A DNA stretch of 62,014 nt, taken from NCBI GenBank assembly GCA_002269645.1, contig NIVC01004064.1:1-62014 (forward strand), in the 5' to 3' direction. Each line of letters begins with the position of its first letter. Position 1 is the first letter of the stretch. This DNA comes from Macrostomum lignano. Taxonomy: Eukaryota. The notes under the pieces were generated by a model. The model did no database searches, was not told the DNA's origin, and saw nothing but the letters and a program-made list of their open reading frames with translations. Made by a program: the position numbers and the translations under genes. This document shows, in pieces, positions 15,326 through 33,800 of the stretch.

Positions 15326-15444
15326 CTGACATCTGCTTAGGCTTCTTTTGTGGTCTGAATTCGATTGCGATATAACATTGTACGAGCGTACTTTGAACAA
15401 TAAATTGAAAAATTAAAATTAAAACCTTTCTCATACTACTTATA

Positions 15445-15547
15445 AGTAGTATACGTTTTTTGACACAAAGCCGATTTCCTTATGGCGAAATACATAGTAA
15501 GTACAGGCCCAAAAAAATGGCAGAGTCCGAAATTTCATGTGCACGCA
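15445..15547 (+). repeat. Left terminal inverted repeat of the Polinton (~103 bp)
   Basis: AGTAGTATACGTTTTTTGACACAAAGCCGATTTCCTTATGGCG...GTGCACGCA is the reverse complement of 30312-30414 apart from two homopolymer-length differences and about 4 substitutions. Its last 25 bp recurs twice more in tandem inward. Confidence 0.95.
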
Positions 15548-16002
15548 GTCTGAAATTCCATGTGCACGCAGTCTGAAATTCCAAGTGCACGCTAAATATC
15601 TTTTACGCAACGTGATAATTCAGACGAATTGCATATCCACCTGTCCAAAATACAAGTAACCGATTCTAGCAATGATGACACAAACACACTTCAAAGGATT
15701 CCATTCAAGACAAATTTACTCCAAAGCTATTCACACATTTCAAGTGTTATTGAAATATTGAAAACTTGTGAATATTATCACCCTTTTGAAGAAAGATAGT
15801 AAATGATCTATTCTTGAGTGCCTATAGAATTTTTGCACCAACTTGAGCAGATGGTTTACAGATACTATGTCAACAACTGCGTCAACATGCTTCTTCTTTA
15901 TACTAAATATATATACGAACACACTGACACAGAAAATATTAAATAACTTAAACCAAGTTTAGATTATACTACTTGTTCAACTATACTTACATCTTAAGTG
16001 AA

Positions 16003-16866
16003 ATGAAGCGATCACGTCAGCAGGAATTGGCCGAGCGCTATGTTAAACAAGGTAAGATAATCACCTACTCTAGTTCAGTTTTCTTTTTTAGATTGACTGT
16101 TCGCTATAGTTTAGTTTCTAGATTGATTGTTAGTTCGGTTTCTGTTTAGACCGATCCTCTGTTTGTTCAGTCTCTAGATTGATTGTCTGCTAGTTCGGTT
16201 TCTGTTTAGACTAATACTCTGCTAGTTCAGAATTTCTAGATTGATTGTCTGCTAGTTCGGTTTCTGTTTAGACTGATTCTCTGCTAGTTCAGTTTCTTTA
16301 TACATTGTATACATGCACCTATACCAAATTTCCCTCATCTTATCCATTATTATATAGCATTCAAGAATGGTTTCTTCACGCGGCCACCTCCAGATCAGTG
16401 CAAACGCATTTGCCACGACACCACCACATCCAATTCTGCTGCAAGAGCATCATATTCTACATCTCTCGCCAGAGTAACCTCGATTCATGTCGAGAGACAG
16501 ACAACTGAGCTAGATCGCATTTACACAAGAACTGATGTTATTCAGTCAATTAGGCAGCAATCGAACCCACGACCAACTGACCAACTGCAGTATGCACCAC
16601 CACCACCATCACCAACCAGCTACAATGACCCAACAAAGCAAACTTGCAGTAAGCCTACAAGTATCAAACCAACGACAGCAACTGAAACACCATCATCATC
16701 AATTGCTATTTCTACCCAAGTTCAACCGCTGCTAAACTCGCCAATTATTGTACAGAAGGACATCAAGTCTGTAAAAGTCTCTCAAATGAGCACAGGCTTC
16801 TACCAAGTAGAATTAGCAAAGACCTGTAATACAACTCAAGTATTTGAATATTGGGACCTATCTTAA
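16003..16866 (+). CDS. Polinton spliced gene of unknown function (~185 aa, P/S/T-rich), exons 16003-16051 + 16358-16866
   Basis: ATG...CAAG|GTAAG donor, TATATAG| acceptor, in-frame phase-1 join MKRSRQQELAERYVKQ-A-FKNGFFTRPPPDQC... The second exon is a 168-codon stop-free frame absent from the ORF track because it has no early start codon. Confidence 0.6.
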
Positions 16867-17114
16867 AAAGACATTTTTTCTAACTCTTCATAAAATTTTG
16901 CCAGCAATGTGTCCAAGTAATTGCTCTTTTAGTATATATCAAACAAGTCTGTAATCAATAATATAATCTTTATAAATTCATTATTCTAAAAAATTCTTTC
17001 AATTTTATTCACCATTCATTGAAATTATTTAATTCAATATAAAGTCAATATCTTGTACAGTCATCATTAAACAAAAATTATTAATCCATGCAAATAATTT
17101 TTTTTTCATACGTT

Positions 17115-18050
17115 TCTTTAGCCATGGTCTGGCTTTTGCCTCAACAGTATGATTTAGCTGTGGTCCAGCTTTTGCCTCAACAGTATGATTTAGCTGTGGT
17201 CCAGCTTTTGCCTCAACAGTATGATTTAGCTGTGGTCCAGCTTTTGCCTCAACAGTATGATTTAGCTGTGGTCCAGCTTTTGCCTCAACAGTATGATTTA
17301 GCTGTGGTCCAGCTTTTGCCTCAACAGTATGATTTAGCTGTGGTCCAGCTTTTGCCTCAACAGTATGATTTAGCTGTGGTCCAGCTTTTGCCTCAACAGT
17401 ATGATTTAGCTGTGGTCCAGCTTTTGCCTCAGCAGTATGATTTAGCCGTGGTCCGGCTTTTTTGCCTCAGCAGTATGATTTAGCTGTGGTCTAGCTTAAA
17501 ACTGCATCAACAGTGATTTAGCTATAGTCCAGGCTTAACTACCTCAACGATGATTTAGCTATAGTCAAGGCTTAACTGTCTCAACAGTAATTTTAGCTGT
17601 TGTCCAGACTTAACTGCCTCAACAGTGATTTTAGCTGTGGTCCAGGCAACTGTCTCAACAGGGATTTAGCTGTAGTCCGATTAGCTTAACTGTCCAGTTA
17701 TTTAGCTGTGAGCCAAGCAGCAGCACCCGTCTCAACAGTGAGAATTAGCTATGGTCAGCTTTACCTCAACTGTGATTTGGCTGCTGTGGTCTAAGCATAA
17801 CTGACTCAACAGTAATTTTAGCTGTAGTCGTCCAGCTTAACCACCCGTCCAGTTTTATAACCATGGTCCAGCTTAACCACCGTCTCAACGTACAGCGATT
17901 TAGTCGTGGTCCAGCTTAACCGTCTCAACGTACAGTGATTTAGCCATGGGTCTAGTAGCAATTAACCGTATCAATAGTGATTTAGCCGTGGTCCAGCTTA
18001 ACTGTCTCAACACAGTAATTTAGCTTAGTCCAAACAGCATTTGTGTGTCA
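17115..18050. repeat. 33 bp minisatellite inside the Polinton (TTAGCTGTGGTCCAGCTTTTGCCTCAACAGTATGA-like), near-perfect to ~17490 then decaying
   Basis: Direct reading. Confidence 0.93.
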
Positions 18051-18735
18051 ACTGCACTGACTGCATGCGGTTATAGCAGCAGCAGTCATTATAGTCCCAA
18101 CAAGCTGCGCGTCGCAGCATGATAGTGTAACTCTATATAGCTTCTGCTCAATATAGGACTGCAAAAGCTGAGTTGCAACTATACCTTTTTCTGTTTGAAA
18201 AGTAACACTCTATATATAGGTTACTCAAGCAATCTCTTGTCACCGTGCGAGCTAAAAAATTCCAACATGCAAGCAAAACTTTCAATAAATTAATTTCATA
18301 GCACCGCGTGCAGCTTATTTTTACTCTAAAATCCAAGATTGCTAATTTTTCAAGTCGCAAAATATTTTAATTACATTCTACTTGAGAACAAAACCAATCT
18401 AATGAAGCAACAACCAGCAGTCTTCTTATTAAACGCTTGCCATCGTGTTACTCTTGCAAATTTATAACTAGTGTGCCTAAGATTCATTAATTTTATTGTA
18501 TAAAATATCAACCTGCATTTGCGTAAAATTAGACCTAATCATGCAACCCGCCCTAGAAACTTATGCCACCTTTGGCACGCAACAATGTCTTAATCAGCAC
18601 GCAACAATTAAATTTGTTTACTAGTTCACAAACAGCATGCAATGCTTGCTATAAATACAAGACCCGAAATGGTCAATTTTTCATGAGCTCAATCATTACA
18701 GCAAAAGAAATACTATATTCAATTGCTTGTAAGAC

Positions 18736-19934
18736 ATGGCAGCTTGCATCAAGACGGAGTCAATTGTACGCTCCGACTCGAGTCCGATTTTCTACGTTGG
18801 AGAGCAGTCTACAGCCACGACTGGTTCGTCCTGCCAGTTTCGATCTATTGCGTGGAAACCATCAATCGAGTGTACAAAATGGTACCCAATTATATTGCAA
18901 ACCAAGGCTCCAATGGAGCTTTTTCGTGGAATCGCAGAAAGGCCAGAGCTCGATCATCCGTCTTGCAGACACGACTCTCGCGACGCAGTAAGTGTCCAAT
19001 TTCATCCAGACAGCTGCGATAAGGAACTCTTCCACTCTCTCCGGTGAGCACCATATTAAATTTATACAATTAATTTTAGGAAACTATATTCATAATTTAT
19101 AAAATGTTTTGCAGTCAAGTCGAAAAAGGTCTATCGGTCAAGTTGAACGAGATTCAAGATGCTCGACCCTTGGCACGACTAACAAAACCAGCTCATCAGC
19201 ATGCTAACGACGTCCTCGAGTTTGTGCCTCAACAATGGCTGGCTATAAAGCCTGCTTACCCTTGTGCCACAATCAGGATCAGCAACGATCATCCACACGG
19301 GAAGGAGGTGTCCATTTCCGATTTCAAAGGTGTCAGCGGTACCTACCAAATGACAGTGCAAGCAACGAGCTTGTATTGTCCAAAAGGCTGCCTCGTCTGG
19401 CGCATTACATTCGCTGTGCGCTCTCTGACACTCATAGAATCTTCCGACAACATGTTGCAGCGCCTCGACATGTTCAAGGGAGTGCTTGCACACCTACCCG
19501 CGACCAAGTCAGCAATTAGAAGCAGGAGTCCGTCCCCAACATCTACCTGTGAGCAAGAAGAAGCAAATGAACAAAGCCTGCAGAATTCAAGCCAGGTGAC
19601 ACCTGCCAAGTCACCTGCAAAGCGTCGGTCTACCACCACCGTATCGAAGAAGTCGACTACATCGAATGCAGCGCCAGCCTCTATTGAACCGCCGCCTAAA
19701 AAGCAAGTTCGAAAACGCAGCGGTGCAAAACAGCAAAACAATTCTGCCGAAGCTGGTGCAGATGGCACAGACTGGGTGGAGGCTCCACCAGCAAAGATCT
19801 TGGTGAGTACACCTGCCTCTGGAACCAGGGTAGCGTCCAAGGAGACAGCATTTTTAAAGCGTGCTGCTGCGGACGCTACTACAGCTAGCGTGTCTTCATC
19901 GGACGACTCGTACAGCAGCTCTGATGATGAGTAA
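18736..19934 (+). CDS. Polinton spliced gene (exons 18736-19043 + 19115-19934, ~375 aa); possible ssDNA-binding/OB-fold protein with acidic tail
   Basis: CG|GTGAG donor and TTTTGCAG|T acceptor join two adjacent ORFs in frame across a 71 nt AT-rich intron. C-terminal half is S/T/K-rich and ends SSDDSYSSSDDE. Function is only inferred. Confidence 0.65.
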
Positions 19935-20144
19935 CAAAATTTTTGACTAATTTTATCTAAGTTTTAACTAACTTATTCCACTATATTTATCAAATTTTTG
20001 GCTAGGGAAATATTATTTTTTAGGGAAAAGCTCAAAACATTTTTTGCTACTCCTTGTACGCTAACCAGGTTTTGTAATTTAATATTAGAATTTACGATAG
20101 TATAGTCATGTTTAACTTTTCTTATTATTTATTTTCCGTTTTAG

Positions 20145-20702
20145 CGACTTGTCCTATTAATAGTTACTGCGAGTCTGAAGCTGCACCCGTTTGAAAAATT
20201 TGATTTAAAGCAGACCAAACAGAAGCTACAGACCAGAAACCGGTTTTGCAAACTATTCCTAAGCCGACCAACAATGCTAAAGACAATTTATTCAAATGCT
20301 AAAATCCAACTTTATCCAGCAGGAAAACTAACTATCTATGGCTGTAAATCAAATTCTCAGATAGTCTCAGTTTTACGATTTATCAACGACACTATTAATT
20401 GTGTAGATTTTGATTCAGTAAAAATTCAGAGCAGTACCTATGTCGGCTTTATTGGTCATCTTTGGCCAAAATTCGGTTTCTCTAGTCTAAAAAGATATGC
20501 AGGCTACTATTCGAATTATCTGGTTGGATACGATGCAGAAAATTTCCCACAAGCAGTTTCTGTTAGATCAGCATCAAAACCAAGGCTTTTTTGTAACATA
20601 TTTTTTTCGAAAAAGTTTGTTATTATGGGCGTTCAAAACACTCATGAATTGAATAATATTCTTAACCATGTCAAGGATTTTTTAATCTCTGTTAATAACT
20701 AA
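20145..20702 (+). CDS. TATA-binding-protein-like protein (Polinton-encoded)
   Basis: Two TBP-like repeats: KIQLYPAGKLTIYGCKS and YDAENFPQAVSVR...CNIFFSKKFVIMGVQNTHEL (compare TBP YEPELFPGLIYR...LLIFVSGKIVLTGAK). Open frame extends 43 codons upstream of ATG 20274 to a strong acceptor at 20144, total 185 aa. Confidence 0.72.
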   Translation, partial: RLVLLIVTASLKLHPFEKFDLKQTKQKLQTRNRFCKLFLSRPTMLKTIYSNAKIQLYPAGKLTIYGCKSNSQIVSVLRFINDTINCVDFDSVKIQSSTYVGFIGHLWPKFGFSSLKRYAGYYSNYLVGYDAENFPQAVSVRSASKPRLFCNIFFSKKFVIMGVQNTHELNNILNHVKDFLISVNN

Positions 20703-20925
20703 ACTTAACAAGTAAACAATTGCTGTCAAATCGCAGTTGCGATGCATTCTTTTACAAACATTTTGTCTTTTTTTATTTATTTACCAATTGTTTTCTCTAA
20801 TAGTAAACGTGTCAGCTATACCTATAACTAACCAAATCATCATTTTTCTTACAGCCGCAAATGACAAACCGGATCATCTATTAATATTATGCTCGATACG
20901 CTCGTTGTCGAGCTAGGTGCACACA

Positions 20926-22023
20926 ATGCCGCGTGCACAATGCCAAATCTGCAGAAAAAAGTTCAGTAATCAAGCCGAGCTGCATGCTCACTCGCATGGT
21001 GCTTGTTTTTCACCGCAACGATTACTGACCGGATCGCTGCAAAACCTGATCGAAAACCCACCAGATGGGTGGTCCATCGCTTTGCGCGAGTCAGCTCATC
21101 GTGGTCGGGTAAATTTTGTCGAATTTACTCCCACTCTTGAACAACAAGGCAACAGCTCTGGCGAGTTACTTCCTGGCGAGTTGATTGCGTCTTTAAGAGA
21201 ACCAATATTTAAAATATTGGAAAAAATTGGCTCACCCAGTTTATTAATAAGAGTCTGCTTTCACTTGAAAGTGACACTATTTCGACCGAAAACAGCAGCA
21301 GACGACAACGATGGCTCGAGCAGCGAAGAGATCATTTCGGTCTATTTTAATACCAACATTGCGACAATATCATTTGATGAGACGATTGCAAACAGTGACA
21401 TGCTGTTATCTCCCGAGGCCTACAATGACTGGTTCGCACGCGTTATTAATCAGTTGTTAATAAAAATTGACAATTTTCAATCTCGAGGTAGTAATTGGCA
21501 ATATAGAGCAATCGAGCAGCTAGACTTGATGCTCTGCGTTTATCGCAAAAGCCATGCAAGCACACTGTCAACAAATACGTCCCACGGTGGTGTGGGGGCG
21601 GGCGGCGGCAGTGGTGGTGGTGGCGGCGGTGGTGGTGGTGGTGGTGGCGGCGGTGGTGGTGGTGGTGGTGGCGGCGGCGGCGGCGGCGGCGGGCGCGGGG
21701 AGTCCGGTCCAGTCCGGTCCGGTCCAGTCCGGTCCGGTCTGGTTAAGCAGCAATCGTTTAAAGTTCCAGTCTCAATCGGTCGCAAAGCTGGAGCAGTACT
21801 GCTTCTAAAGCCGCACAGAGCAGTTTAAAGCATCAAGACTATTTAAGAGTCTTACACAAGCGACAACTTGTGTTTTCGCGCATGCAGTCCATTCGTTCTC
21901 GAAAACAGAAAGTTTTTTTTGATGCAACAAAGAAAACTTGCACTAAGCTTCTTCGATACGAAGCGATCCTGGACAAGTTCAATTAATTCGCTACCCTTTG
22001 GACACTGGCACTTGGCTAATTAA
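20926..22023 (+). pseudogene. Protein-primed DNA polymerase B with internal deletion (N-terminal region fused out of frame to extreme C-terminus)
   Basis: N-terminus has a C2H2 finger (CQIC...HAHSH) and IDNFQSRGSNWQYRAIEQLDL, typical of Polinton PolB N-termini. After ~21805 another frame reads SKAAQSSLKHQDYLRVL...MQSIRSRKQKVF, then after a T8 frameshift LALSFFDTKRSW...SLPFGHWHL, matching the PolB C-terminus. No exonuclease or polymerase motifs lie between. Confidence 0.78.
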
Positions 22024-22315
22024 TTAACAATATGCTCTGATCTCTTTTGTTGTACAAAGTAATAGCATGCTATAGAAGACTGTAACCCATCATTAATTTT
22101 TTCATTGATCATTATTTACAATAAATAAATGATACCGGCATTCGTTTAAATTATAATTTTAGCACTTTTTTGTGTTTAATTATTTGAAAAAGTATATTTT
22201 TTATAGTTAGATTCTCAAGACTAAGCTTGTGTTTGTAGTAGACGTAAATGTAGTGCTATCGTTCATGTTTCAAGAAAAAAAACTTTTTTTTAAACTTTCA
22301 GCTACAAGAATCGAC

Positions 22316-22798
22316 ATGAATCCCGAGCAGCAGCAGCAACAACAACTAACTGATCGTAAGCTTTTAGTTGAACGTCTATACGATTCGGCAACGATTCCGA
22401 CCCGAAAAACTGTCGGGTCGATCGGGTATGATCTTTGCGCTGGCGTCGATGGTACCATTCCGGCCTACGAGTCCCGGAGTGTGCGAACCGGACTCAAAAT
22501 TCGCTTACCGCCTGGTACCTATGGCAGGATAGCGGGACGTTCCAGCATGGCTCTGCACAGCTTATTTGTTGGCGGTGGCGTAATCGACCCCGACTATACT
22601 GGTGAAATCTGTATAGTCTTGTTTAATTACAGTCCGGAAGACTTTGAGTACTATGCCGGGCTCAGTATTGCACAACTGGTTCTGGAGCAGGCCGTGCTTG
22701 CTTCAGTCTATGTGACTGAAGCAGACAATTCGATTCGGATGATTGAGCCGCCGACCAAGCGGCGCGGCTTTGGCGGCTTTGGCAGCACTGGCCAATAA
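22316..22798 (+). CDS. dut: dUTPase (trimeric type)
   Basis: All five motifs: GYDL, GRSS, GGVIDPDYTGEI, IAQLV, RGFGGFGSTG. Likely start ATG 22316. Confidence 0.96.
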   Translation: MNPEQQQQQQLTDRKLLVERLYDSATIPTRKTVGSIGYDLCAGVDGTIPAYESRSVRTGLKIRLPPGTYGRIAGRSSMALHSLFVGGGVIDPDYTGEICIVLFNYSPEDFEYYAGLSIAQLVLEQAVLASVYVTEADNSIRMIEPPTKRRGFGGFGSTGQ

Positions 22799-22889
22799 GT
22801 ATAATAATAATAATAAACTGATTTTTTTCTTTGGTGATTGGTGCACTATGCGAGAGCTTTGTAAATACTATAAGCAATTTTAAAAATTT

Positions 22890-23333
22890 ATGCCTAAAAT
22901 ATATGTTGTAAAAATGTCTCCAGCGAAAGATCGAGGTTTTAAAAAGAAAAAGAAGAGCATTCGTAAAAAGAAGAAATCTATTAGAAAGATTAATAAAAAG
23001 CAACAAGGTTATGGTGTCGTAAATTGGTTAATTAATCATTTACCATTTGAAGCACATTTACCCGGCGGATATCAGTTTTGTGGTCCAGGTACGCAACTGC
23101 AAGCTAGGCTAGCAAAAGGACAACGAGGAATTAATCGGCTTGACAATTTGTGCATGCTTCACGACGTGGCCTATGATAAAAATTCTGACGTGCAAGAGAG
23201 GTTAAAAGCTGATAAGCTATTAGAATCTGGTGCACGAGAGATTGCCCACGATCCGTCTACTGGTTGGAAAGAAAAACTAGCTGCGAAGTTGGTTACCAAG
23301 GTTATGCAAGTTAAGCAACGCTTTGGTGCTTGA
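22890..23333 (+). CDS. Parvovirus VP1-type phospholipase A2-like protein (PLA2X) with basic N-terminus
   Basis: YQFCGPGT Ca-loop-like motif and INRLDNLCMLHDVAY catalytic HD motif. Confidence 0.88.
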   Translation: MPKIYVVKMSPAKDRGFKKKKKSIRKKKKSIRKINKKQQGYGVVNWLINHLPFEAHLPGGYQFCGPGTQLQARLAKGQRGINRLDNLCMLHDVAYDKNSDVQERLKADKLLESGAREIAHDPSTGWKEKLAAKLVTKVMQVKQRFGA

Positions 23334-23335
23334 AA

Positions 23336-24025
23336 ATGCAGCAGCCATACAATATGCAACTAGCTCACGATTCTACATTTATTATTGCTGGACCTTCAAA
23401 CTCGGGTAAAACTGAATGGACGTTGCGTTTGTTGACTGAACGAAAAGAATTATTTGATAAAAAACCGTGCCGTCTTGTTTGGTGCCATGGATCAAGTTTG
23501 AAACCAGACGATCAACAACGAATTAGAACATGCTGGCAAAAAAGCGGTCTTGACCCTATTGTTTTTGTACCCGAATTCACACCACAGATGATTAATCGTT
23601 TTTTACCACACGATTTGGTTGTTGTTGACGACTTGCAAAGCGAGATTGCTAAGTTGCCAGAATTTACTAGTATGTTTACAAAGCATGCGCATCATATCCC
23701 TTTGACTTGTCTGTACCTTTGTCAAGGTCTTTTTAACAAGTCTGATCCAGAAGCACGCATGCGAAGTTTATCAGCTAGTTATATTTGTCTAACTCGTAGT
23801 GTGCGCGATCGAACCACAGTTGAACATCTCGGTCGACAAATGTATCCGCGTAATAGTAGGTTTCTAGTGAATGTGTATGAAGACGCAACAAATAACAAAC
23901 CTTTTTCATATTTATTCATTGACCTGCGGCAAGTGACACCAGATTTTTTACGATTGAGAACAGGAATATTTTCTGGTGATGAACAAGTTGTCTATACTCG
24001 TGAATGTGATGCAAAGTTTGTGTAA
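23336..24025 (+). CDS. A32/FtsK-like DNA packaging ATPase
   Basis: Walker A GPSNSGKT, Walker B LVVVDDL, and PFSYLFIDL...LRLRTGIF C-terminal motif typical of Polinton ATPases. Confidence 0.93.
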   Translation: MQQPYNMQLAHDSTFIIAGPSNSGKTEWTLRLLTERKELFDKKPCRLVWCHGSSLKPDDQQRIRTCWQKSGLDPIVFVPEFTPQMINRFLPHDLVVVDDLQSEIAKLPEFTSMFTKHAHHIPLTCLYLCQGLFNKSDPEARMRSLSASYICLTRSVRDRTTVEHLGRQMYPRNSRFLVNVYEDATNNKPFSYLFIDLRQVTPDFLRLRTGIFSGDEQVVYTRECDAKFV

Positions 24026-24082
24026 TATTATTATAAGCAAATTATAAACTGTTGTCAATATTAGTTTGTGTTTTATTTCAAA

Positions 24083-25072
24083 ATGAGTTTTTACGTTTTT
24101 TTGCCGTCAAACGATATCAGTTACGAAACCAACTCGCCTAATGAATTTCGAGTGCGACTAACTGAACCAATAAATTTATTGAACGGATTCTTCGAGGTTG
24201 CACTAGTTGAATTACTGTGCCATGGAGCAATTACGACGCCAAATGCTCATCGTGAGCGTCGATTTGAAGTTCCATATTTTGCGGACATTGACTCAATAAT
24301 ACGATTAAAGAAAAACTATTGGGGTCGTGTTTGGGCAGAGGCAGACTTGGATGCTTACGTTTCCTGGCAACCGTCTGGTACAGATGAAAAATTTGCCTGG
24401 CTTTTACGAAATTCAGGCGAAAAAACTATTGGATTAGAACTACCAGTTACATTTATGGACGCTTTCAAATTTGACTCTTGGAAGAAACTTTCTGGACTTG
24501 TCTCGGAAAAATTATCAAAACCTGCCGCTGGTAGTGTACAACCACCGGATGGTTCATACTTGGATTTGATAAAAAGTCTCGACAATACTCTAGCGCTAGT
24601 ACCTGAGAACTATTATGTTTTTTATTGTGTTCTATCGCCTGGTGAAGCTATACGACTTGTTTCGCATGGAGACTATCTTCGAAAAACGGAAGGAGAAGTG
24701 TACATCAAAGTACACCAATATTGGTTGAGAAATCGTGTTTGGCGCATTAACAAAACCTACTTGGATGCTGTGCTACCTTCTCCGATGCCTAGTAAAACGG
24801 TTTACATGTACTGTTACACAGATATAATCGAGTATCAAGCAGTGGGAAGTACATCAGTACCGTTGCTTCGAGTTGTGGAACTCCAACAAAAGAAAAACGG
24901 AGAACTTATACGCGATAGCAGTGCATTGCAAACACCCTACTACTTGAAAACAAATCGACAACAAATTCACGAGATTTCGATTCGACTATCGGACCAGCGC
25001 GGAAAACCGTTTAATTTTGATCCGGGAGCACACGTTGTTGTCGTACTGCATTTTAAACATAGGTCGGACTAA
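24083..25072 (+). CDS. Minor capsid protein (penton)
   Basis: N-terminal FYVFLPSN...FRVRL...FEVALVEL and C-terminal YCYTDIIEYQAVG...PLLRVV...ISIRLSDQRGKPFNF...VVLHFK, the Polinton penton pattern. Confidence 0.85.
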   Translation: MSFYVFLPSNDISYETNSPNEFRVRLTEPINLLNGFFEVALVELLCHGAITTPNAHRERRFEVPYFADIDSIIRLKKNYWGRVWAEADLDAYVSWQPSGTDEKFAWLLRNSGEKTIGLELPVTFMDAFKFDSWKKLSGLVSEKLSKPAAGSVQPPDGSYLDLIKSLDNTLALVPENYYVFYCVLSPGEAIRLVSHGDYLRKTEGEVYIKVHQYWLRNRVWRINKTYLDAVLPSPMPSKTVYMYCYTDIIEYQAVGSTSVPLLRVVELQQKKNGELIRDSSALQTPYYLKTNRQQIHEISIRLSDQRGKPFNFDPGAHVVVVLHFKHRSD

Positions 25073-25128
25073 TTTATAAGCAAAGATTAATTGTGTAATA
25101 GAAAATTTTGTGAATTTGTTTTGTAAGA

Positions 25129-25557
25129 ATGAGCGAACTAACAGAAAAAGGAAAACAAAATGCTCGCTCATTGTGTCAGTGTGCTTTTTTACTACAAATT
25201 GTTTATCGGCTAAAGCATCCAAAGCAGAGAAAAAGTTTTTTACAAACACTTTCAGAGTCGGAGATACGATGTCTAGTAGACTTTCTGTTTAATATTATTA
25301 GTGGACGTATTAAAATTAGTAACTGTAACAAAAGACGACTTGAGAAGCATCGCAGATATATACGCCAGCTTTTGGAACAGAAGACTCCAATTACTGCAAA
25401 AAGGAAAATACTTGTCCAACACGGAGGATTTTTACCTTTTTTGGCTCCAATTATTGCCGCTCTACCTGCTATAAGCACTGCGCTTGGGATAACGTCTGGA
25501 GTAGTTGGTACCGCCGCGGGAGCAGCGAATTTAATACGATCAATTCAACGAAAGTAG
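25129..25557 (+). CDS. Virion core/membrane-active protein, adenovirus pX-like C-terminus
   Basis: VQHGG|FLPFLAPIIAALPAI resembles adenovirus pX MRGG|ILPLLIPLIAAAIGA; basic helical N-terminal domain. Confidence 0.7.
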   Translation: MSELTEKGKQNARSLCQCAFLLQIVYRLKHPKQRKSFLQTLSESEIRCLVDFLFNIISGRIKISNCNKRRLEKHRRYIRQLLEQKTPITAKRKILVQHGGFLPFLAPIIAALPAISTALGITSGVVGTAAGAANLIRSIQRK

Positions 25558-25567
25558 TAGGAATATA

Positions 25568-26257
25568 ATGCGAACTAACGAGAGTAGTAGTTTTCAACGA
25601 ATGTATCTAGTACCTGAATCTGTGTATCAATCTGCATGTCAAGGTGCAGAGCAAGGATCGTCACCAACTGCTGAGACACCTCGAAAAACTGAAGTTTTAG
25701 ACGCACCGCAAGATGCTCTGGCAAAAAATATGGTGGAAATGAGAGACCAAATGGATAACTTGGACAAGGAAATGGAAAAGGAGCCAAATTACACAGCTCA
25801 ATTGAAACGAAGCAGATTGGAAGACAAACTTTTAAAATTGCGCAAAGTCTATCGCACTGGAGACGAGGACAATCTGTCACTTGTTCGCAAAGGGACTACT
25901 GTAAGAAGTTCATATGCCAGCGAATCAAGGGAAATTCCTAAAGTTTTTTTACCACGTTTCGAAGCTCTCGCTCAAAACCTATTTTCGGACATGGACAAGA
26001 ATGCAGAACCAATGCTGGCTAATTTGACTGATGCCGAGATACAAGATCTCATGGAATATGTTGTTCGAGACAGACCGCTTAAGCGACACGAGACTCAACC
26101 GCCTAGTGGACTAAAAACATTTTTAGACTTTCTTCGAAAACGTGGAATCGCAGCAAACCAAATCGGGCGTCATGTACGAAACGAGCTAATGTCTGCTCCA
26201 AAAACTGTTGCAAAGGAGGATCTTAGTCTGTTTGAAAATTATCAAACACTGAATTAA
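25568..26257 (+). CDS. Polinton hypothetical protein (229 aa)
   Basis: Intact ORF packed tightly in the late block; N-terminal RMYLVP motif. Confidence 0.75.
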   Translation: MRTNESSSFQRMYLVPESVYQSACQGAEQGSSPTAETPRKTEVLDAPQDALAKNMVEMRDQMDNLDKEMEKEPNYTAQLKRSRLEDKLLKLRKVYRTGDEDNLSLVRKGTTVRSSYASESREIPKVFLPRFEALAQNLFSDMDKNAEPMLANLTDAEIQDLMEYVVRDRPLKRHETQPPSGLKTFLDFLRKRGIAANQIGRHVRNELMSAPKTVAKEDLSLFENYQTLN

Positions 26258-26538
26258 GTTGTTTTAAAATTACAGATTACGTTTTAACAAAATTGATTCG
26301 AGCACTATAAGCTTTTTAAAAAGGTTAATTTTTTGTTTATGAAAAATATATAGTTTAATAAGACAAACCATGTCATCTATCTTCCAAAAACTTTTGATTC
26401 GTCTCTGTGAGTTTTTTTGCATAAAATCTGAATGTGTGCCGTTTCTGGGAAAGGAGCACAACGAGGATACTGACGGAGATTCGATCGAGGCTTCGTTCTT
26501 TTGTTGCAACTGTCAAACGACTAGCATCAATCTAACTG

Positions 26539-27699
26539 ATGATGAAGCGAGTGCGTAAGGAAATTGAAGAATTTTTGACGGATGCTTTTTTTAACTTGAA
26601 CAGGCCTACTTCATTTAGTGGTAACAAGACTATACTTGTTCGTGAAGTACGTAAAAAGTTTCCACAGATTACGAACAAAGTTGCAAAGCGCGAAGTTGAT
26701 AATTGGGTGCGATCAACAAATGAGCATCATTTATTTCGAAAAACACGACGAAACTTTCCAACTCCAAAAATTAGTGTGCCACCAGTTGCAAAGTTTCAGT
26801 TTCAAATCGATTTGGCAGATTTACCTCAATACAAGACGGAAAATCGAGGTTATCGTTACATACTTGTTCTTATCGACTGTTTTACTAGAGTTGTACGACT
26901 AAGACCATTGCGTACAAAGAAGCCTTCAGAAGTTAGTCAAGTATTACTAGAGATTTTTCGAAGTGGTTTTAAGCCTGTTTATTTACAAGGTGATGCTGGT
27001 ATGGAGTTTCTCGGAAGAGCTACACGTCAAATGCTGAAACAGGAAGGAGTTCGATTTTTTGTTAGCCAAAGCAATTACAAGGCAAGCATGGCTGAACGAT
27101 TTATCCGCTCGTTAAAGGAACGTCTATTACGATACTTTCGAGCAAAAAATTTACCTCGATGGTTTGACATTTTACCGCAATTGGAAGATAATTTCAACTC
27201 TAGTCCTCATCGATCCTTGAGTGGAGAAACACCAAAACGGGTAGAGACAGACCCGCATTTACAAGGAATTTTGTGGGACAAAATGTTTGCGAAGTCGTAC
27301 ACTAAAAAGAATGAGAATAAATTTAAAGTTGGTGATTGGGTTAGAATTACACGACGTCGAGGAACATTTGAAAAAGGATACACTACGACTTGGAGTAATT
27401 CAAAATATCGCATTCATCGTGTACACTTGACAGACCCGCCAATGTACGAATTAGTGGACCCTGAAGATGGATTTGAAGTGCTGAAAGGAAGGTTTAACCA
27501 AGCGGAACTAATGTTGGTAAACGAGACAGATGAAACACCTAATGAAATTGAAAAAGTTATTGAAACTGATCGAGCGAAAAATGGAAGTCGTCTGTATCTA
27601 GTAAAATGGAAAGGTATGCCAATCTCAAGAAGTCAGTGGTTAAACGAAAATGATCTTGACGCAAAGACTGCTAAACTATTTTCTAAAGTGTATAAGTAA
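26539..27699 (+). CDS. Retroviral-like (rve) integrase with C-terminal chromodomain
   Basis: DDE triad in QIDLAD, QGDAGMEF, AERF; FKVGDWVRI...FEKGY; chromodomain EIEKVI...YLVKWKG...SQWL. Confidence 0.97.
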   Translation: MMKRVRKEIEEFLTDAFFNLNRPTSFSGNKTILVREVRKKFPQITNKVAKREVDNWVRSTNEHHLFRKTRRNFPTPKISVPPVAKFQFQIDLADLPQYKTENRGYRYILVLIDCFTRVVRLRPLRTKKPSEVSQVLLEIFRSGFKPVYLQGDAGMEFLGRATRQMLKQEGVRFFVSQSNYKASMAERFIRSLKERLLRYFRAKNLPRWFDILPQLEDNFNSSPHRSLSGETPKRVETDPHLQGILWDKMFAKSYTKKNENKFKVGDWVRITRRRGTFEKGYTTTWSNSKYRIHRVHLTDPPMYELVDPEDGFEVLKGRFNQAELMLVNETDETPNEIEKVIETDRAKNGSRLYLVKWKGMPISRSQWLNENDLDAKTAKLFSKVYK

Positions 27700-27740
27700 C
27701 ACATGAATTGGGATTGCATGACGAAGAGAAGACTGTTGAA

Positions 27741-28199
27741 ATGGATCCTATTTTTGCTTTTTATTCTGGTCCGAATAGATCTGCTGAAGGTGGAGGTGGA
27801 TATGGCATTCCTGTTTACGAAGGTTACGGTTTTTTGTCAAATTTGGCGGACAGATTGGTGTATCCTGTACTACGCAACGCAAAGAAAGATTTCTTGGATC
27901 GTGGTCTGGAGTATTTGAAAAGTGCGACAGCAAAAATTGGTATGGGTCGGAAGCGTCACTTGGACACAGAATCGAGCGAAGAGATGTTTAATACAACTGC
28001 AGTTTCGAGACCAAAGCGAAGGAAAAGAACCAGTGGAGTGGCTATAAGCTTAGGAAAGAAGAAACGGCAAAAGAAACGACGAACAAGACAGTGTGGAAAG
28101 GGACGCGTGAACAAAAGAAAACGCAAGAAGACCGGTGGTATAGGAAAACGTCGAACTGCTACTGCAAGCAAGAAACTTTTTAGTCTGTTTGAAAAGTAG
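27741..28199 (+). CDS. pVII-like basic core protein
   Basis: MDPIFAFY start, GYG|FL processing-like site, very K/R-rich C-terminus; lies immediately before the MCP. Confidence 0.7.
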   Translation: MDPIFAFYSGPNRSAEGGGGYGIPVYEGYGFLSNLADRLVYPVLRNAKKDFLDRGLEYLKSATAKIGMGRKRHLDTESSEEMFNTTAVSRPKRRKRTSGVAISLGKKKRQKKRRTRQCGKGRVNKRKRKKTGGIGKRRTATASKKLFSLFEK

Positions 28200-28200
28200 C

Positions 28201-29523
28201 ATGAACCATTTGCTTGGACCTGATATTGCTGCTCTTAAAAGTGAATTGTCGCTATTTGATCAAAGTCCTGTTCAGTTTAGTGTTTTGGATAATCGATATA
28301 CTAACATTCAACCGCAACATGGTATTACAAAAGGATCACCTATCGAATTTGAAGTTGTGCCTGCAGGCGATTTGTATTTGGATCTACAAGAAACTGTGCT
28401 CACGGTATGCTTCAGCGTTAGTGATAGTGAAGGTGAACCTATAGATGCAACGAAAAATTTTGTTTGTTTGAATAATTTGGTTATTGGAACATTGTTTGAG
28501 GACGTTCAATTTACTATTGGCGATACTGTAGTTGAAGGTGGTAGTTTTATGTATCCATACAAGGCTATGCTTCTTACATTACTGGAATATGGACATACAG
28601 CTCAGAAGGCTGGTTTACTGCCGTGGGGGTTTTACAAGGATACAGCTGGTAAAATGAATGCAACAAGTGAAAACGATGGACGAACAAAGAGGCAGGCGCT
28701 CATTGCTAACAATAGGCGGTGCACTGTATCGGGGCCGTTATTCTTGGATTTGTTTCGTCAGCCTCGGTATCTACTATCAAAGACACCACTACGGATCAAG
28801 CTCATACCGGCAAAAAGTAAATTTGTCCTGAGCGGGTCAACATTAGAAGCTGGTGCGGTTTTAAAAGACTATGAGATCAAGTTTTTGCGTGCAGAACTAC
28901 GATTGCGGTTTGTTCAACCCTCGCCGAGTGTTATCAGTGCACATGCTCATGGACTTAAAAGTCACAATGCATTATATCCGCACCGAAGTCTAAGCCTTGG
29001 TACGTTTACTATACCCCGAGGATCGTCTAGCCATACGCATGAAAATTTGTTTCCTAGTGGGGTACCACGGCTTTTATTGATGGCAATCGTAAGCAACAAG
29101 GCATTCAATGGAAGCATGGACACAAATCCGTTCAACTTTGAGCATGCAAATGTGAGCAGCATTGGTGTGTTTGTGAATGGAGACTCGGTACCATCGCGTC
29201 CGCTGCAGACAAACTTTGGAGATGATTGTGTGACAGAGTATAATTTTTTGCTACAACAGCTTGGAATCTATCTACAGGGACGAGATATTGGATTTAATAT
29301 GCTGGATTACGCCAATGGTTACTCAATTTTTGCATTCAGTCTTGGAAGTGAACCTGGTGTCGGACGGGGAGTGCAACTGTATAAGGAAGGAAATGTAAAA
29401 CTAGAGTTACGCTTCAATGCTGCAACTAGTACCGTGTACAACGTCATATTTGGAGGTATATTTGACAAGCAACTGCAACTGACTGAACTTCGCGACATTG
29501 TTCCTGGCACAGTATGGAAGTAA
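28201..29523 (+). CDS. Major capsid protein (double jelly-roll, hexon-like)
   Basis: KSELSLFD..P.Q, PIEFEV...LYLDLQET, NPFNFEH, GNVKLELRF motifs of the Polinton MCP; 440 aa. Confidence 0.93.
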   Translation: MNHLLGPDIAALKSELSLFDQSPVQFSVLDNRYTNIQPQHGITKGSPIEFEVVPAGDLYLDLQETVLTVCFSVSDSEGEPIDATKNFVCLNNLVIGTLFEDVQFTIGDTVVEGGSFMYPYKAMLLTLLEYGHTAQKAGLLPWGFYKDTAGKMNATSENDGRTKRQALIANNRRCTVSGPLFLDLFRQPRYLLSKTPLRIKLIPAKSKFVLSGSTLEAGAVLKDYEIKFLRAELRLRFVQPSPSVISAHAHGLKSHNALYPHRSLSLGTFTIPRGSSSHTHENLFPSGVPRLLLMAIVSNKAFNGSMDTNPFNFEHANVSSIGVFVNGDSVPSRPLQTNFGDDCVTEYNFLLQQLGIYLQGRDIGFNMLDYANGYSIFAFSLGSEPGVGRGVQLYKEGNVKLELRFNAATSTVYNVIFGGIFDKQLQLTELRDIVPGTVWK

Positions 29524-30077
29524 TTGATTCTATCCTAGATCGTGGTGTAACAGATCGCTTCCTTCGCAATGTTGTATCGAAATTGTGCGCACATTTTTTA
29601 AATGTTGTATTTCTTGGTGTTTTTCCTCAAAACTTTGTTGGTGGACTTAGACGCTTACCTTTAGACGGTAAAGACTATTTTTTTATCGTTAATACTGACG
29701 TCTCCAACCTGCCCGGAAAACATTGGGTATGCGTTTGGGTTTATGGTCATCGAGCAGGTCGCGGTAGCAAACGACTTGGTGAATATTTTGATTCTCTTGG
29801 TCTAGTACCATTGCCAAGAATAGCAAAATGGCTAGGAAAAGAATGTGGAAATTCGAAAAATTGGTGTTATAGTCGCTTTGCTATCCAAGACCCACAGAGT
29901 GGAAGTTGTGGATTTTGGGTAATTTTTTATATTTTTCATAAGTTGACTACCAGAGGAAACCTAGAGTGTTTTATTCGAAGCGTTTTTAAACGGAATATAA
30001 TTCGCACTGGTTCGTTTCGATACTTGTATGCTAAATTACGCAATTTTGTTTTACGAGTGCTGCCTCAATATTTGTAA
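29514..30077 (+). CDS. Adenain-family cysteine protease
   Basis: IVNTD...GKHWV, EYFDSLG, IQDPQSGSCG: catalytic H, D, Q and C all present. Overlaps the MCP end by 10 nt. Confidence 0.95.
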   Translation: MEVIDSILDRGVTDRFLRNVVSKLCAHFLNVVFLGVFPQNFVGGLRRLPLDGKDYFFIVNTDVSNLPGKHWVCVWVYGHRAGRGSKRLGEYFDSLGLVPLPRIAKWLGKECGNSKNWCYSRFAIQDPQSGSCGFWVIFYIFHKLTTRGNLECFIRSVFKRNIIRTGSFRYLYAKLRNFVLRVLPQYL

Positions 30078-30311
30078 ACTCGCTAATTTGTGCGTCAAAT
30101 TGTGTTTGTATCTAGTTGAAATATACAATACTGCTTGAAAAGAAGAATTTAAATGCGTTAAGTTATACGCGAAATAAGCTTTGTGTCAAATTGAATTTTG
30201 GTTGGGCTTGTAATTAGCTGCATTCATTGCGGATAGAATTTAGGTGGATAGACAGGTGTTTGCGTAAAAGTGATTCAGCTAATTGGTTAATTCATTGCGT
30301 AAAAGCTAGTT

Positions 30312-30414
30312 TGCGTGCACGGCAAATTTCAGACTCTGCCATTTTTTGGGCCTGTACTTACTATGTATTTCGCCATAAGGAAATCGGCTTTGTGTCAAAA
30401 AAACGTATACTACT
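30312..30414 (-). repeat. Right terminal inverted repeat of the Polinton
   Basis: Ends ...AAACGTATACTACT; reverse complement of the left TIR. Confidence 0.95.
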
Positions 30415-30882
30415 CCTGCTCTAAGGTCTACATGTAAGCGATGGCTAATGAGGGGAGATCGGAAGCTAATTAATTCGCAAACTGCTTCCATTCAGTCCTA
30501 CCAACAATGGCGCACTTCTGGGACTGCAACTGACCGTGCATCTATCGAAAAGTATTTTCTATATCTTAGCAAGTTGGAAATTATATGTATTTTTCAGCTC
30601 TAATGCAGAGGATAAAATATGCAAGTGAACCCCTGAATTCTTCTGCTGACGAGGGGCAAATTCAGCCTCACAGAGGCCATAAAACTTATCCACACTGTCC
30701 TGCTGCCTTTAGTTGTAAGCAATATTAGCGTGTCTAATAAAAGACAAAAGACAAAATAATGACAAGCCATTAGTTGAAGCTTTGATCATAAATTCCTTCA
30801 ATTATTGAAGCTTATTAAAGTATTTATCTTGCCATCACCCTTAGTGAGTTAGTTACTAAAATCCAAGGTTCACAATGTCGAT

Positions 30883-33800
30883 TCACTTCACTTCGAAGAC
30901 GCTATAGTTGGAGTTCCCGCCGCACTTCTCGTTCGCGTTGCCGCCGCAAGCCACGTTGCAGTTGGCCTTCGCGGTTTCGTCGCTGTTTCCGTACTCATTG
31001 CCGCAGCCACAGATTTTGCCGTTCTTGACGCCAAAGTAGGAAAACTTCTTGGCCTTGCAGATTTTATTGCACTTCCACACGGTCATGCGGTCGGACACCA
31101 TGGCGACGGTGAAGTCCGGATACTCCGGGTCGTCCAGGTAACAGCCGAGGAATTCTTTAGTAGGGTGATATCAGATACAATAAGGCATTGGATTACTCCA
31201 CAGTATAATGATATGTACTAGACTCAAAAGATTCAGTTCTTCGGCTTGAAACTCATAACGGTAAACACATTGGAAAAACAAACTAACATCAACTTTGCAC
31301 AGATTATAAATTCTTAGTTGTTTGTTTAAAGCTCGTGTGGAACAGAATTCTAGAACTTAACAGCTCAGATTTAGCATATTAGATTTCGTTTTTTAATGAA
31401 TCGATGTAATTGTCTTACTCCTCGAAGGTCGTCTTCGAGCTGGCAGTCCAGTGGTGTAGATGCTGTTTCTCCAGCGCGATCCGCAGAAGGTCGACTTTTT
31501 ACCTGAGCACTTCATCCTGCACTCGGACTTGGACCTCTTTCCGTACTTGCCGTAGCTGTTTCCGCACCAGCACTCCTTGCTGTACTGCACACCGAAGTAG
31601 GCGTATCTCTTTGCTCTGCACAGTCGGTAGCACTTCGGGATGCTCATCGAGCCGGAGCCGGCCATCACTGGTAGGTCTCGCTTTTTCTTGTCGATGTAGC
31701 AGCCGACGAATCGCATTCCCGGAGCTGTGTTTTTAACAGGTGCGTAATTCTTTATAATCTAATTTAAGAAACAAAATGTAAAAAGCATCTCCCTGATGTT
31801 CATCTATGCGAATGTCTTTAAACTGAGTTCTGATAAATAATATCATACATTTCTAACTGAATTATTACTCCTAAAACCAATTTTGAATTGCAAGGAGAAG
31901 GTTCTAAATTTTCCAACAACTGCACTTGAGCCGTGACGCGAAAAAGCTCACGTCACGAATGCTGATACAACTGAGTATCTAGTCTCCACAGTCTGAAATA
32001 TTTGCTATCAGCTCTGCTATAGGCAAGTTATTTGGCTTGTTATGTAGTCTGCGCATCACCCCATAATGACTTAAGCGCTATCGAAAAAGCTTTTAGTCAA
32101 TATAGAAACAACAATTCCACTTAGTAAACTGTCTTTTTCGCTGCATAAATTGAACAACTGCATGCTGGACATTGGAAATACCTGATTCGTTATAATATTA
32201 TGCCTGCATATGGACGTTTTTATCCCTATATTACTCTCTCGAGATCTTCTGGTACGGCATGCATTCAAATCTGCAGGTTTATTTATAATTCTCTTTGACC
32301 AGATTTGGTACCCTTCCCAACAGTATTCAATGCTAGTTCCGAACTAAATTCAAGACTGAATTCAGTTTTTTTTAAATGGATAAGTGTAATTGTCTTACTC
32401 CTCGAGGGTCCTCTTCGAGCTGGCAGTCCAGTGGTGTAGATGCTGTTTCTCCAGCGCGATCCGCAGAAGGTGGACTTTTTACCAGAGCACTTCATCCTGC
32501 ACTCGGACTTGGATCTCTTTCCGTACTTGCCGTAGCTGTTTCCGCACCAGCACTCCTTGCTGTACTGCACACCGAAGTAGGCGTATTTCTTTGCTCTGCA
32601 CAGTCGGTAGCACTTCGGGATGCTCATCGAGCCGGAGCCGGCCATCACTGGTAGGTCACGCTTTTTCTTGTCGATGTAGCAGCCGACGAATCGCATTCCC
32701 GGAGCTGTGTTTTTAACAAGTGTGCAATTTTATAATATCTAATACAACCGTTATTATTTAAATTAACGGCTAATAAATACTTAGCAATGTACACGTCTTT
32801 TAACTGACTTTAGATAAAAGCATATTAGACATTTCATAATCAATTACTTGCCAAAATCTTTTTCAGCCATTTTAAATAGCATATCCATTTGCTATTAGCC
32901 ATTTAGCTGGGGAGATTGCTAATAGCTATTTTGAATAGCGTGAATTGCAGCACATATGAATAACCGATATAAATTTAAGGCATTGCAACTCTACAGCAGG
33001 TCTCACCTTTAGCCTTGGCCAAAAGACCAGTTGTGAAAATTTTGTTTCTCCAGACTCCACCGCAGTAAGTGGTCTTGTCGCCGCTGCACTGCATGCGACA
33101 CTCGGTGTTTGGTCTGATTCCGAATCGGCCATAGTGATTGCCGCAGAAGCAATGGTTGCCATATTGAACACCGAAGAACTTGTACTTGTGCTTTCGACAG
33201 AACCTGTAGCACTTGGGCACGCTCATGTGGCCTCTTGGAGCTTCGCGTCTCAGATCTCTGGTGGCTTTGTCGGCGAAGCAGCCGAGGTACTTCAGTCCCG
33301 GAGCTGTTAAAAACAACGATATTAATTGAAAGGGCATGTCAACTTGAGCTCATAAAGTGAAGCCCGAGTAACCTATGTACACAAATGATACGTCATTCTG
33401 CTCACAGTGACACCAGGAAGCTGGATTTGTCAAAAAAAGTGACGAAAATGGACCTGGGATAGGAGAGAACAAGCAAAATGAGAATAAATTACTATTATGT
33501 AAACTTAAGCTCATAAGGTGGAGTCCCTAATTTTCCCCTTGCTTGTTCTATCCAATCCCAGGTCCAATTTTTGTCACTGACAAATCCAGCTTCCTGGTGT
33601 CACTGTGAGTAGAATGACGTATCATTTTTGTACATAGGTTACTCGGGCTCCACTTTATGAGCTTAAGTTGACACTTGACAGGCCCTTTATCTTAAAGACT
33701 ATTCAAATTAACAATGCAAAAGTTCATTATGTTAGTTTTGTATAAGAGAAGACTTACTTGACACTTTTCTAGTCTTGAGTCCGGTGCTGTAGATGGAGTT

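Follow-up and report, generated by a model that had tools for sequence, protein, structure and literature searches.

The TBP-like exon of a Polinton/Maverick element in the flatworm Macrostomum lignano, which has no start codon of its own, probably acquires its N-terminus by alternative splicing from the SSB-like gene upstream of it. The locus lies in contig NIVC01004064.1, positions 1 to 62,014 of which were analysed (the window), and would encode a short protein of 375 aa and probably also an SSB-linker-TBP fusion of 517 aa. Such a fusion had been proposed in the earlier note. Its splice sites, their phase and conservation, and both protein domains stood up to our analysis, whereas the joint itself was seen in 0 of 8 sequencing runs and a start supplied by the host spliced leader is still a live alternative.

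A non-autonomous Polinton in the window

The element and its main landmarks are as follows:

15445..30414, + strand: Polinton/Maverick, non-autonomous deletion form, ~15 kb (terminal inverted repeats, Pfam domains, at least 44 genome matches)
15445..15516, + strand: left terminal inverted repeat (61-nt arms, 100% complementary)
30342..30414, - strand: right terminal inverted repeat (61-nt arms, 100% complementary)
20926..21828, + strand: N-terminal part of pPolB, with an internal deletion of ~3.2 kb relative to a 95% subfamily (break at 21822; compared with L028 and L112)

Its repeats, integrase and polymerase identify the element as a Polinton/Maverick. Inverted repeats stand at both ends, and the Pfam search gave matches to rve, Chromo, dUTPase, Phospholip_A2_4 and Adeno_PX; the integrase is of the retrovirus-like type (rve at 33.7 bits against a cut-off of 32.6, plus Chromo). 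The polymerase belongs to the protein-primed family B, the homologous gene of locus L086 matching DNA_pol_B_2 (E 4.4e-17). In addition to the SSB-like, TBP-like and broken pPolB genes, the element contains dUTPase, PLA2-like, ATPase, minor capsid-like, pX-like, integrase, major capsid-like and protease genes, the last being a candidate whose Peptidase_C5 match (E 0.043) is below the Pfam cut-off. The capsid-like and ATPase-like frames gave no match in the Pfam search; these names are assigned tentatively, from the conserved gene order.

Since ~3.2 kb of pPolB is missing in the window family, this form is non-autonomous. The region 19000-20800 has at least 44 matches in the genome (G000), at least 27 of them 99-100% alike over the full length, and the family is thus a recently spread one. 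A 6-bp target-site duplication is a feature of Polintons/Mavericks; none is present at the window copy, whose flanks differ (single insertion compared).

Several minor features of the region were recorded. Just before the left end of the element (15420-15445) there is a short stretch mirroring the terminal sequence, which might be the end of an adjacent copy. The left part of the element contains a 36-nt tandem repeat that decays rightwards (17085-18030), a shorter repeat array (16080-16290) and, beside these arrays, a 192-codon frame (16288-16866). Within the N-terminal part of pPolB, a GGT/GGC run at 21590-21700 encodes a poly-Gly stretch of variable length. To the right of the element (30853-32729) there are repeated host exons with a cysteine pattern which we take to be WSC-like.

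The SSB-like gene and the TBP-like exon

The features of the locus, read from left to right, are:

18736..19043, + strand: SSB-like exon 1, starting at ATG 18736 (homologous exon in 6/6 lineages; matches the start of database protein P0001)
19044..19114, + strand: intron 1, 71 nt, GT-AG, phase 2 (joint in RNA contigs of 6/8 runs; same codon position and phase in other lineages)
19115..19802, + strand: SSB-like exon 2 up to the internal donor (rest of the OB-type fold, then a basic disordered linker, according to the model of P0001)
19803..19934, + strand: read-through tail of the short form, 43 codons with an acidic end (contigs cross the donor unspliced in 6/8 runs)
19803..19808, + strand: internal donor GTGAGT, phase 0 (kept in 54/54 acceptor-holding copies; the single in-frame GT[AG]AG of exon 2 in 6/6 lineage representatives)
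19803..20144, + strand: putative alternative intron, 342 nt, proposed from the conserved sites (joint itself seen in 0/8 runs)
20117..20144, + strand: pyrimidine tract and phase-0 acceptor before the TBP-like exon (same codon position across all lineages)
20145..20702, + strand: TBP-like exon, 185 codons (Pfam TBP E 2.2e-7, above the cut-off; pLDDT 94.5; Z 16.1 to yeast TBP)
20840..20854, + strand: acceptor for addition of the host spliced leader ahead of pPolB (a 23-nt loose end in run X7 is the end of the host leader exon)

The upstream gene proved to be larger than its visible frame, its start (ATG 18736) and the 71-nt intron not being listed in the earlier note; the short form is therefore 375 aa long and the fusion would have 517 aa. 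The short form shares its layout with P0001, and all six database forms of the upstream protein are short forms; UniRef assigns this protein to Macrostomum lignano. Neither Pfam nor PDB sequences gave a match. The model of P0001 has ~230 ordered residues, the remainder being disordered (pTM 0.53, core pLDDT about 75-94), and a Foldseek search returned ASFV CP312R at the top (E 3.7e-5, fold of residues about 5-230), followed more weakly by Enc34 SSB and T7 gp2.5. Against viral models there were 109 matches at E up to 0.001, giant-virus proteins among them. Giant-virus proteins were also the neighbours in a structure atlas, where DUF2738, DUF5871 or Pox_I3 stood on 10-17% of members, which may serve as a lead. 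A PC4-like fold, considered before, was dropped once the model and Foldseek had pointed to OB-type SSBs.

The model thus has the OB-type fold of the T7 gp2.5-type viral SSBs, and the short forms end in the corresponding acidic tail (rich in Ser, Asp and Glu). The upstream product is accordingly a predicted ssDNA-binding protein, its DNA binding being a prediction from the fold, and the SSB-like assignment made in the earlier note was borne out to this extent. It resembles gp2.5, Enc34 and CP312R in predicted fold and in the acidic C-terminal tail of the short form, and differs from them in that its gene has an intron, its linker is long and basic, and its tail would be exchanged for a TBP fold by the splice. 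A motif of the RV[AP][SF]K[DE] type is common to the tails of four of the six lineages. This suggests that the short tail is under selection in these four, and hence that both forms are functional.

The designation of the second frame as TBP-like also found support, both in the above-threshold Pfam match and in the predicted complete fold. Exon residues 1-185 align with residues 66-239 of yeast TBP (Z 16.1, rmsd 2.7, 168 aligned) and form the two-repeat saddle of the TBP family; in the structure comparison the five best rows were TBPs and the next row had Z 8.5. Two Phe pairs of TBP kink the TATA box. The second repeat of the exon keeps F134 and F153 in 10/10 proteins; the first has Y57 in 10/10, and its other Phe position is ambiguous (F/Y38 by alignment versus R41/P42 by repeat spacing). 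The Asn pair found in strands 1 and 1' of canonical TBP is replaced by Leu/Gln at 4 and Ser/Thr at 96, and the protein is therefore TBP-like and not a canonical TBP.

As had been noticed before, no ATG precedes the first repeat: a stop stands right before the 20145-20702 frame, and its first ATG (20274) is codon 44. The ATG at 20108 was rejected as a start, being out of frame and replaced by TTG in 5/35 copies. Residues 1-43 belong to the fold, to which they contribute strand 2-11 and helix 21-30 (codon 1 lies at the start of strand 1), so translation must begin upstream of ATG 20274. This bears on a reading that we regard as improbable, in which the donor serves another end (a different acceptor, or U1 tuning of 3'-end formation) and the exon is translated from ATG 20274 or from a non-AUG start. 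Such a reading would fit the invariance of Met44 (10/10 aligned proteins) and the unspliced RNA or DNA contigs that extend over both sites. A start at Met44 would, however, remove strand 1, helix 1 and strand 2 together with the invariant R1, A9, L28, K36 and P42, and the other acceptors within 19803-21000 yield only 0-18 codons in phase 0. A splice to the one at 20854 would not continue in the pPolB frame, for which reason an SSB-pPolB fusion was also rejected.

At position -1 of the fold, canonical TBP has Pro and the free-standing viral TBP-like proteins have Ile, Tyr or Pro; the latter start with Met 1-3 residues before the first strand. In the fusion this position would be occupied by the invariant Leu that precedes the donor. 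Word-indexed protein searches gave no database record for the exon at its length, and viral contig scans no relative; the one metagenome locus, L101, was dropped as a bacterial chance match. A fused SSB-TBP protein was found neither among 7990 longer candidates (a weak test) nor among 136 profile matches, the four close ones being 143-257 aa long. Two environmental proteins (P0007 and P0008) have a matching Gln-then-Arg/Lys boundary, preceded by residues of the kind that a pyrimidine tract would encode. Free-standing viral TBP-like proteins of 160-200 aa from environmental assemblies (P0011-P0016, P0020) have an RP-x-M motif in the first repeat as well.

Splice sites, RNA and the host spliced leader

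Rereading of the sequence confirmed both sites named in the earlier note: the donor TTG|GTGAGT with its GT at 19803, in phase 0 of the 19080 frame, and the acceptor AG ending at 20144, also in phase 0, with 342 nt skipped between them. In the lineage representatives the corresponding intron would be 270-619 nt long. A donor-like word is not rare by itself, since the + strand of this 15-kb Polinton contains GT[AG]AGT four times; it is conservation that lifts this one above chance.

Conservation was examined in 57 loci, comprising 37 of the close family and 20 diverged places retrieved from a protein search of G000 (86 matches, some lineages being 37-46% identical). Three loci are cut short and 54 hold the acceptor. 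Donor, acceptor and phase, whose persistence in other copies had been named as a check on the proposal, were all kept across deeply diverged lineages, the donor being retained in every one of the 54. An in-frame ATG before the exon, which would have counted against the fusion, is absent in 52/54; the exceptions are L088 and L089, where it lies 11 codons upstream within the pyrimidine tract, and their sister copies L099 and L100 are without it. Among the 44 genome matches listed, none is split at both sites as a processed (intron-less) copy would be (40/43 candidates scored).

The same data make it very hard to maintain that the TBP-like exon is a decayed gene which has lost its start, with sites present by chance. 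The window family is indeed a deletion form with a broken pPolB, and many copies carry frameshifts. However, of the 35 acceptor-holding copies of the close family, 25 have all 185 codons of the exon open and 10 have it broken, and the layout with the acceptor first and no ATG recurs in six lineages and probably in two environmental proteins, so that this explanation is largely refuted by conservation.

The strongest argument comes from six lineage representatives with 24-55% identity in exon 2, which make up five independent groups (L082 and L083 are close). In every one of them, GT[AG]AG occurs in frame only once in exon 2; it follows K-x-L, stands 42-50 codons ahead of the stop and lies in a stretch that can otherwise hardly be aligned. 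Across the six, the codons at the donor are TTG, CTG, CTC or CTT for Leu, only GTG or GTA for Val and always AGY for Ser; conservation of the donor word ends at its fifth base and the residues diverge directly after it. Fourfold sites are near saturation (30% identical, 979 comparisons), and the acceptor precedes the same Arg codon in all lineages. These figures have to be read with codon constraint in mind, as a Val-Ser pair conserved at the protein level already yields GT and much of the donor word. Ser-Ser pairs kept the codon set in 122/176 cases, and third bases that were all purines were also found in 2/16 invariant fourfold columns. On sequence grounds, the conservation case for the donor is strong, although short of proof.

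RNA data were drawn from 8 of 24 listed runs, all in the form of assembled contigs, and the findings apply to the contig pieces listed. None of the runs is on record as RNA, and their RNA nature was judged from the splicing of intron 1, which was seen in 6/8; the two without this joint (X1 and X14) may be DNA or too thin. The donor at 19803 was crossed unspliced in 6/8 runs, in five of them with intron 1 spliced or a leader added elsewhere, so the read-through partner of an alternative 5' splice-site pair is present in the contigs. The acceptor at 20144 was crossed unspliced in 3/8. The junction 19803-20144, which was to be sought in such data, was found among the listed contig pieces in 0/8 runs, and the same holds for a spliced leader at 20144, of which contigs cannot show absence. 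In several runs, contigs are missing over about 19960-20150 and over parts of the TBP-like exon; neither this nor depth was used as evidence. As contigs lose rare forms, the missing joint lowers the odds of the fusion and leaves room for a minor or stage-limited splice, occurring for example during replication of the element.

The host spliced leader, which has AUG at its end, was joined to RNA of the element at 20854 in 1/8 runs. Together with the spliced intron 1, this indicates that element RNA is both cis-spliced and leader-spliced. The leader sequence matches the published spliced leader of Macrostomum lignano (PMC8629364), its end occurs 58 times in G000, and 4/7 loci of one set end in ATG|GTAAG, as in the published SL RNA gene (PMC8629364). 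The other three loci of that set and six loci of another motif set are not SL RNA genes, and in four motif loci that are no such genes Rfam found no SL RNA family. Joined at 20854, the leader AUG would give a short upstream frame of 9 codons; for pPolB a separate ATG is present at 20926. Leader addition to transposon RNA has been reported in Hydra (PMC12220107).

On this basis a rival scheme can be drawn up, which we consider unlikely, if far from negligible: the SSB-like and TBP-like genes would form an operon, the leader would be trans-spliced at 20144, its AUG would start a free 186-aa protein, and the donor word would be a by-product of a conserved K-x-L-V-S. The published and observed leader genes ending in ATG|GTAAG and the leader already present at 20854 are in keeping with it. 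So are the gaps between stop and acceptor (138-490 nt, inside the 1-kb operon rule of PMC8629364), and [T/C]TNCAG, the host motif for trans-splicing described there, is matched by most of the TBP acceptors. A flatworm leader AUG can start proteins (Cheng et al. 2006, as cited in PMC9851317), and the ATG-less frame behind a phase-0 acceptor is like that of the flatworm host genes for which such starts were described, from which the present case differs in its virus-like element and its competing cis donor. Met would then stand at -1 as in the free-standing homologues, and the resulting form would be complete, the domain needing no partner. Against this scheme, no leader was found at 20144 in the contigs of eight runs, the acceptor in the window is TTTTAG and not TTNCAG, and trans-splicing is reported to prevail only at acceptors without an upstream cis donor (work cited in PMC8629364), whereas here a cis donor lies upstream, in a form (GTGAG) that agrees with the top host donor motif GT[G/A]AG (PMC8629364). 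Above all, it leaves unexplained why a single in-frame donor word stands at one spot in 6/6 lineages, with conservation ending at its fifth base. The cis-spliced fusion therefore remains our preferred reading, to which the leader route might be added: acceptor 20144 may also take the host leader, with the free 186-aa protein made besides the fusion. As both routes place a hydrophobic residue (Leu or Met) at -1, the two forms can coexist.

Some further leader-like sequences were noted in the genome. Five loci (L039, L040, L042, L043 and L047) belong to a repeated element with a leader-like sequence ending in ATG followed by AACCATCAAAAC with no donor, possibly a mobile element with its own leader copy; L038 and L049 have the appearance of leader-spliced mRNAs that were retroposed. 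The SL RNA gene motif recurs every ~11-20 kb in contigs C1213, C1214, C3830, C4525 and C4853 of G000, which suggests tandem arrays with a long unit.

A candidate late promoter and parallels in other viruses

A TATA-like box, TATAAG[CT], precedes virion genes of the element:

22869..22875, + strand: box ahead of the PLA2-like gene, candidate late promoter
24032..24038, + strand: box 51 nt before the minor capsid-like ATG (46-54 nt in 7 related loci with an in-frame ATG)
25075..25081, + strand: box 54 nt before the pX-like ATG (6/6 related loci)
26306..26312, + strand: box 64 nt before the small ORF preceding the integrase
27691..27697, + strand: box before the basic core-like gene that precedes the major capsid-like gene (4/6 related loci)

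The spacing is mostly 41-64 nt ahead of the PLA2-like, minor capsid-like, pX-like, small-ORF and core-like genes; at two PLA2-like loci TATATG stands in place of the box, and some boxes have no long frame directly after them. The virion-gene blocks of five lineages hold 7, 5, 8, 6 and 5 sense boxes (31 in total) and one antisense box, against an expectation of 0.4-0.9 per block, and 0/200 resamples reached the observed count in any block. Six replication blocks have no sense and two antisense boxes, and the flank in the window (46.9 kb) has four and five on its two strands. As the motif was picked in the window, the other four lineages are the real test, and they gave 24 sense versus 0 antisense boxes. 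Counted across the entire window, TATAAGC shows no enrichment (11 versus 8.5 expected). The sense-strand boxes in the virion-gene block of the window element lie at 22869, 24032, 25075, 25470, 26306, 27691 and 28043; the other lineages are represented by loci L103, L109, L111 and L116.

We propose TATAAG[CT] as a candidate Polinton late promoter and as the likely target of the TBP-like factor, for which binding to a TATA-type box is predicted with this candidate as its basis. In TBP, the second repeat meets the 5' half of the TATA box and the first repeat the 3' half. A conserved second repeat combined with an altered first one would fit a box that keeps TATA and is changed after it.

Taken together, these observations lead us to infer a coupling of replication to transcription, as suggested in the earlier note, now with a candidate promoter. 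In the fusion, the SSB part would hold the TBP-like domain on genomes whose strands are displaced in protein-primed replication, and the domain, by binding TATAAG[CT], would bring about a switch to late genes. More speculatively, animal Polintons might possess an early/late programme of their own, in which a TBP mimic is spliced to an SSB, a private late promoter, TATAAG[CT], is active only on genomes undergoing replication, and one phase-0 acceptor is shared by the cis splice and the host leader, whose AUG gives the free TBP mimic; we hold this full scheme to be possible, though rather doubtful.

A viral TBP mimic is known from KSHV, in which ORF24 acts at a variant TATA box on late structural-gene promoters after genome replication has started (PMC12529657; PMC6541308), and by analogy we infer a role as late-promoter factor for the TBP-like protein. 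ORF24 is large and belongs to a six-member complex, whereas the Polinton protein would be no more than a 185-aa fold that probably has its SSB partner in cis, its binding and timing being predicted. The layout of an internal donor either read through or spliced is like that of adenovirus L4-22K and L4-33K, which share one N-terminus, have two C-termini and both take part in the early-to-late switch (PMC4346872). The likeness is one of layout, with no homology claimed: the two Polinton forms would have a predicted SSB in common, and the part joined on by splicing would be a TBP fold.

Among described Polintons/Mavericks, the adintoviruses and MELD viruses of Starrett et al. (PMC8502044, 10.1101/697771) have the same terminal inverted repeats, pPolB, rve integrase with chromodomain, protease and virion-gene block, and TBP-like genes in Polinton-like elements appear in the figure legends of that work. 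The present element is unlike them in its conserved spliceosomal introns, its use of the host leader and a TBP-like exon without its own start; the portions of the two texts available to us make no mention of splicing. The SSB-TBP fusion, its splice, spliceosomal introns and the TATAAG box are likewise not reported in the openly available main text of the Polinton papers searched (PMC10748475, 10.64898/2026.06.19.733378, PMC12220804, PMC11161782, 10.64898/2026.10.13.758929 and PMC11131425 besides the two texts above); PMC6880638 contained nothing relevant.

The splice, if real, would tie a self-encoded TBP-like factor to a replication protein and, together with the conserved candidate late promoter, would provide a concrete circuit in a laboratory flatworm. 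It would address the question of how integrated Polintons time the expression of their genes and switch on those for particles, and would parallel the TBP mimics of herpesviruses and the shared-exon pairs of adenoviruses in an unrelated group of small DNA viruses. Genes of this kind escape gene callers: the TBP-like exon lacks a start, and the database search gave no record of it at full length.

Another variation of the locus concerns the region downstream of the TBP-like exon, where five lineages carry a deoxynucleoside kinase that the window family does not have. The kinase was located at L090:3140-4519 (- strand), L081:4632-5300, L083:4648-5307 and L088:3288-3905, and also in L091 and L094. 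In the L090 lineage the TBP-like and kinase parts form one frame of 460 codons, so that the splice would there give an SSB-TBP-kinase protein.
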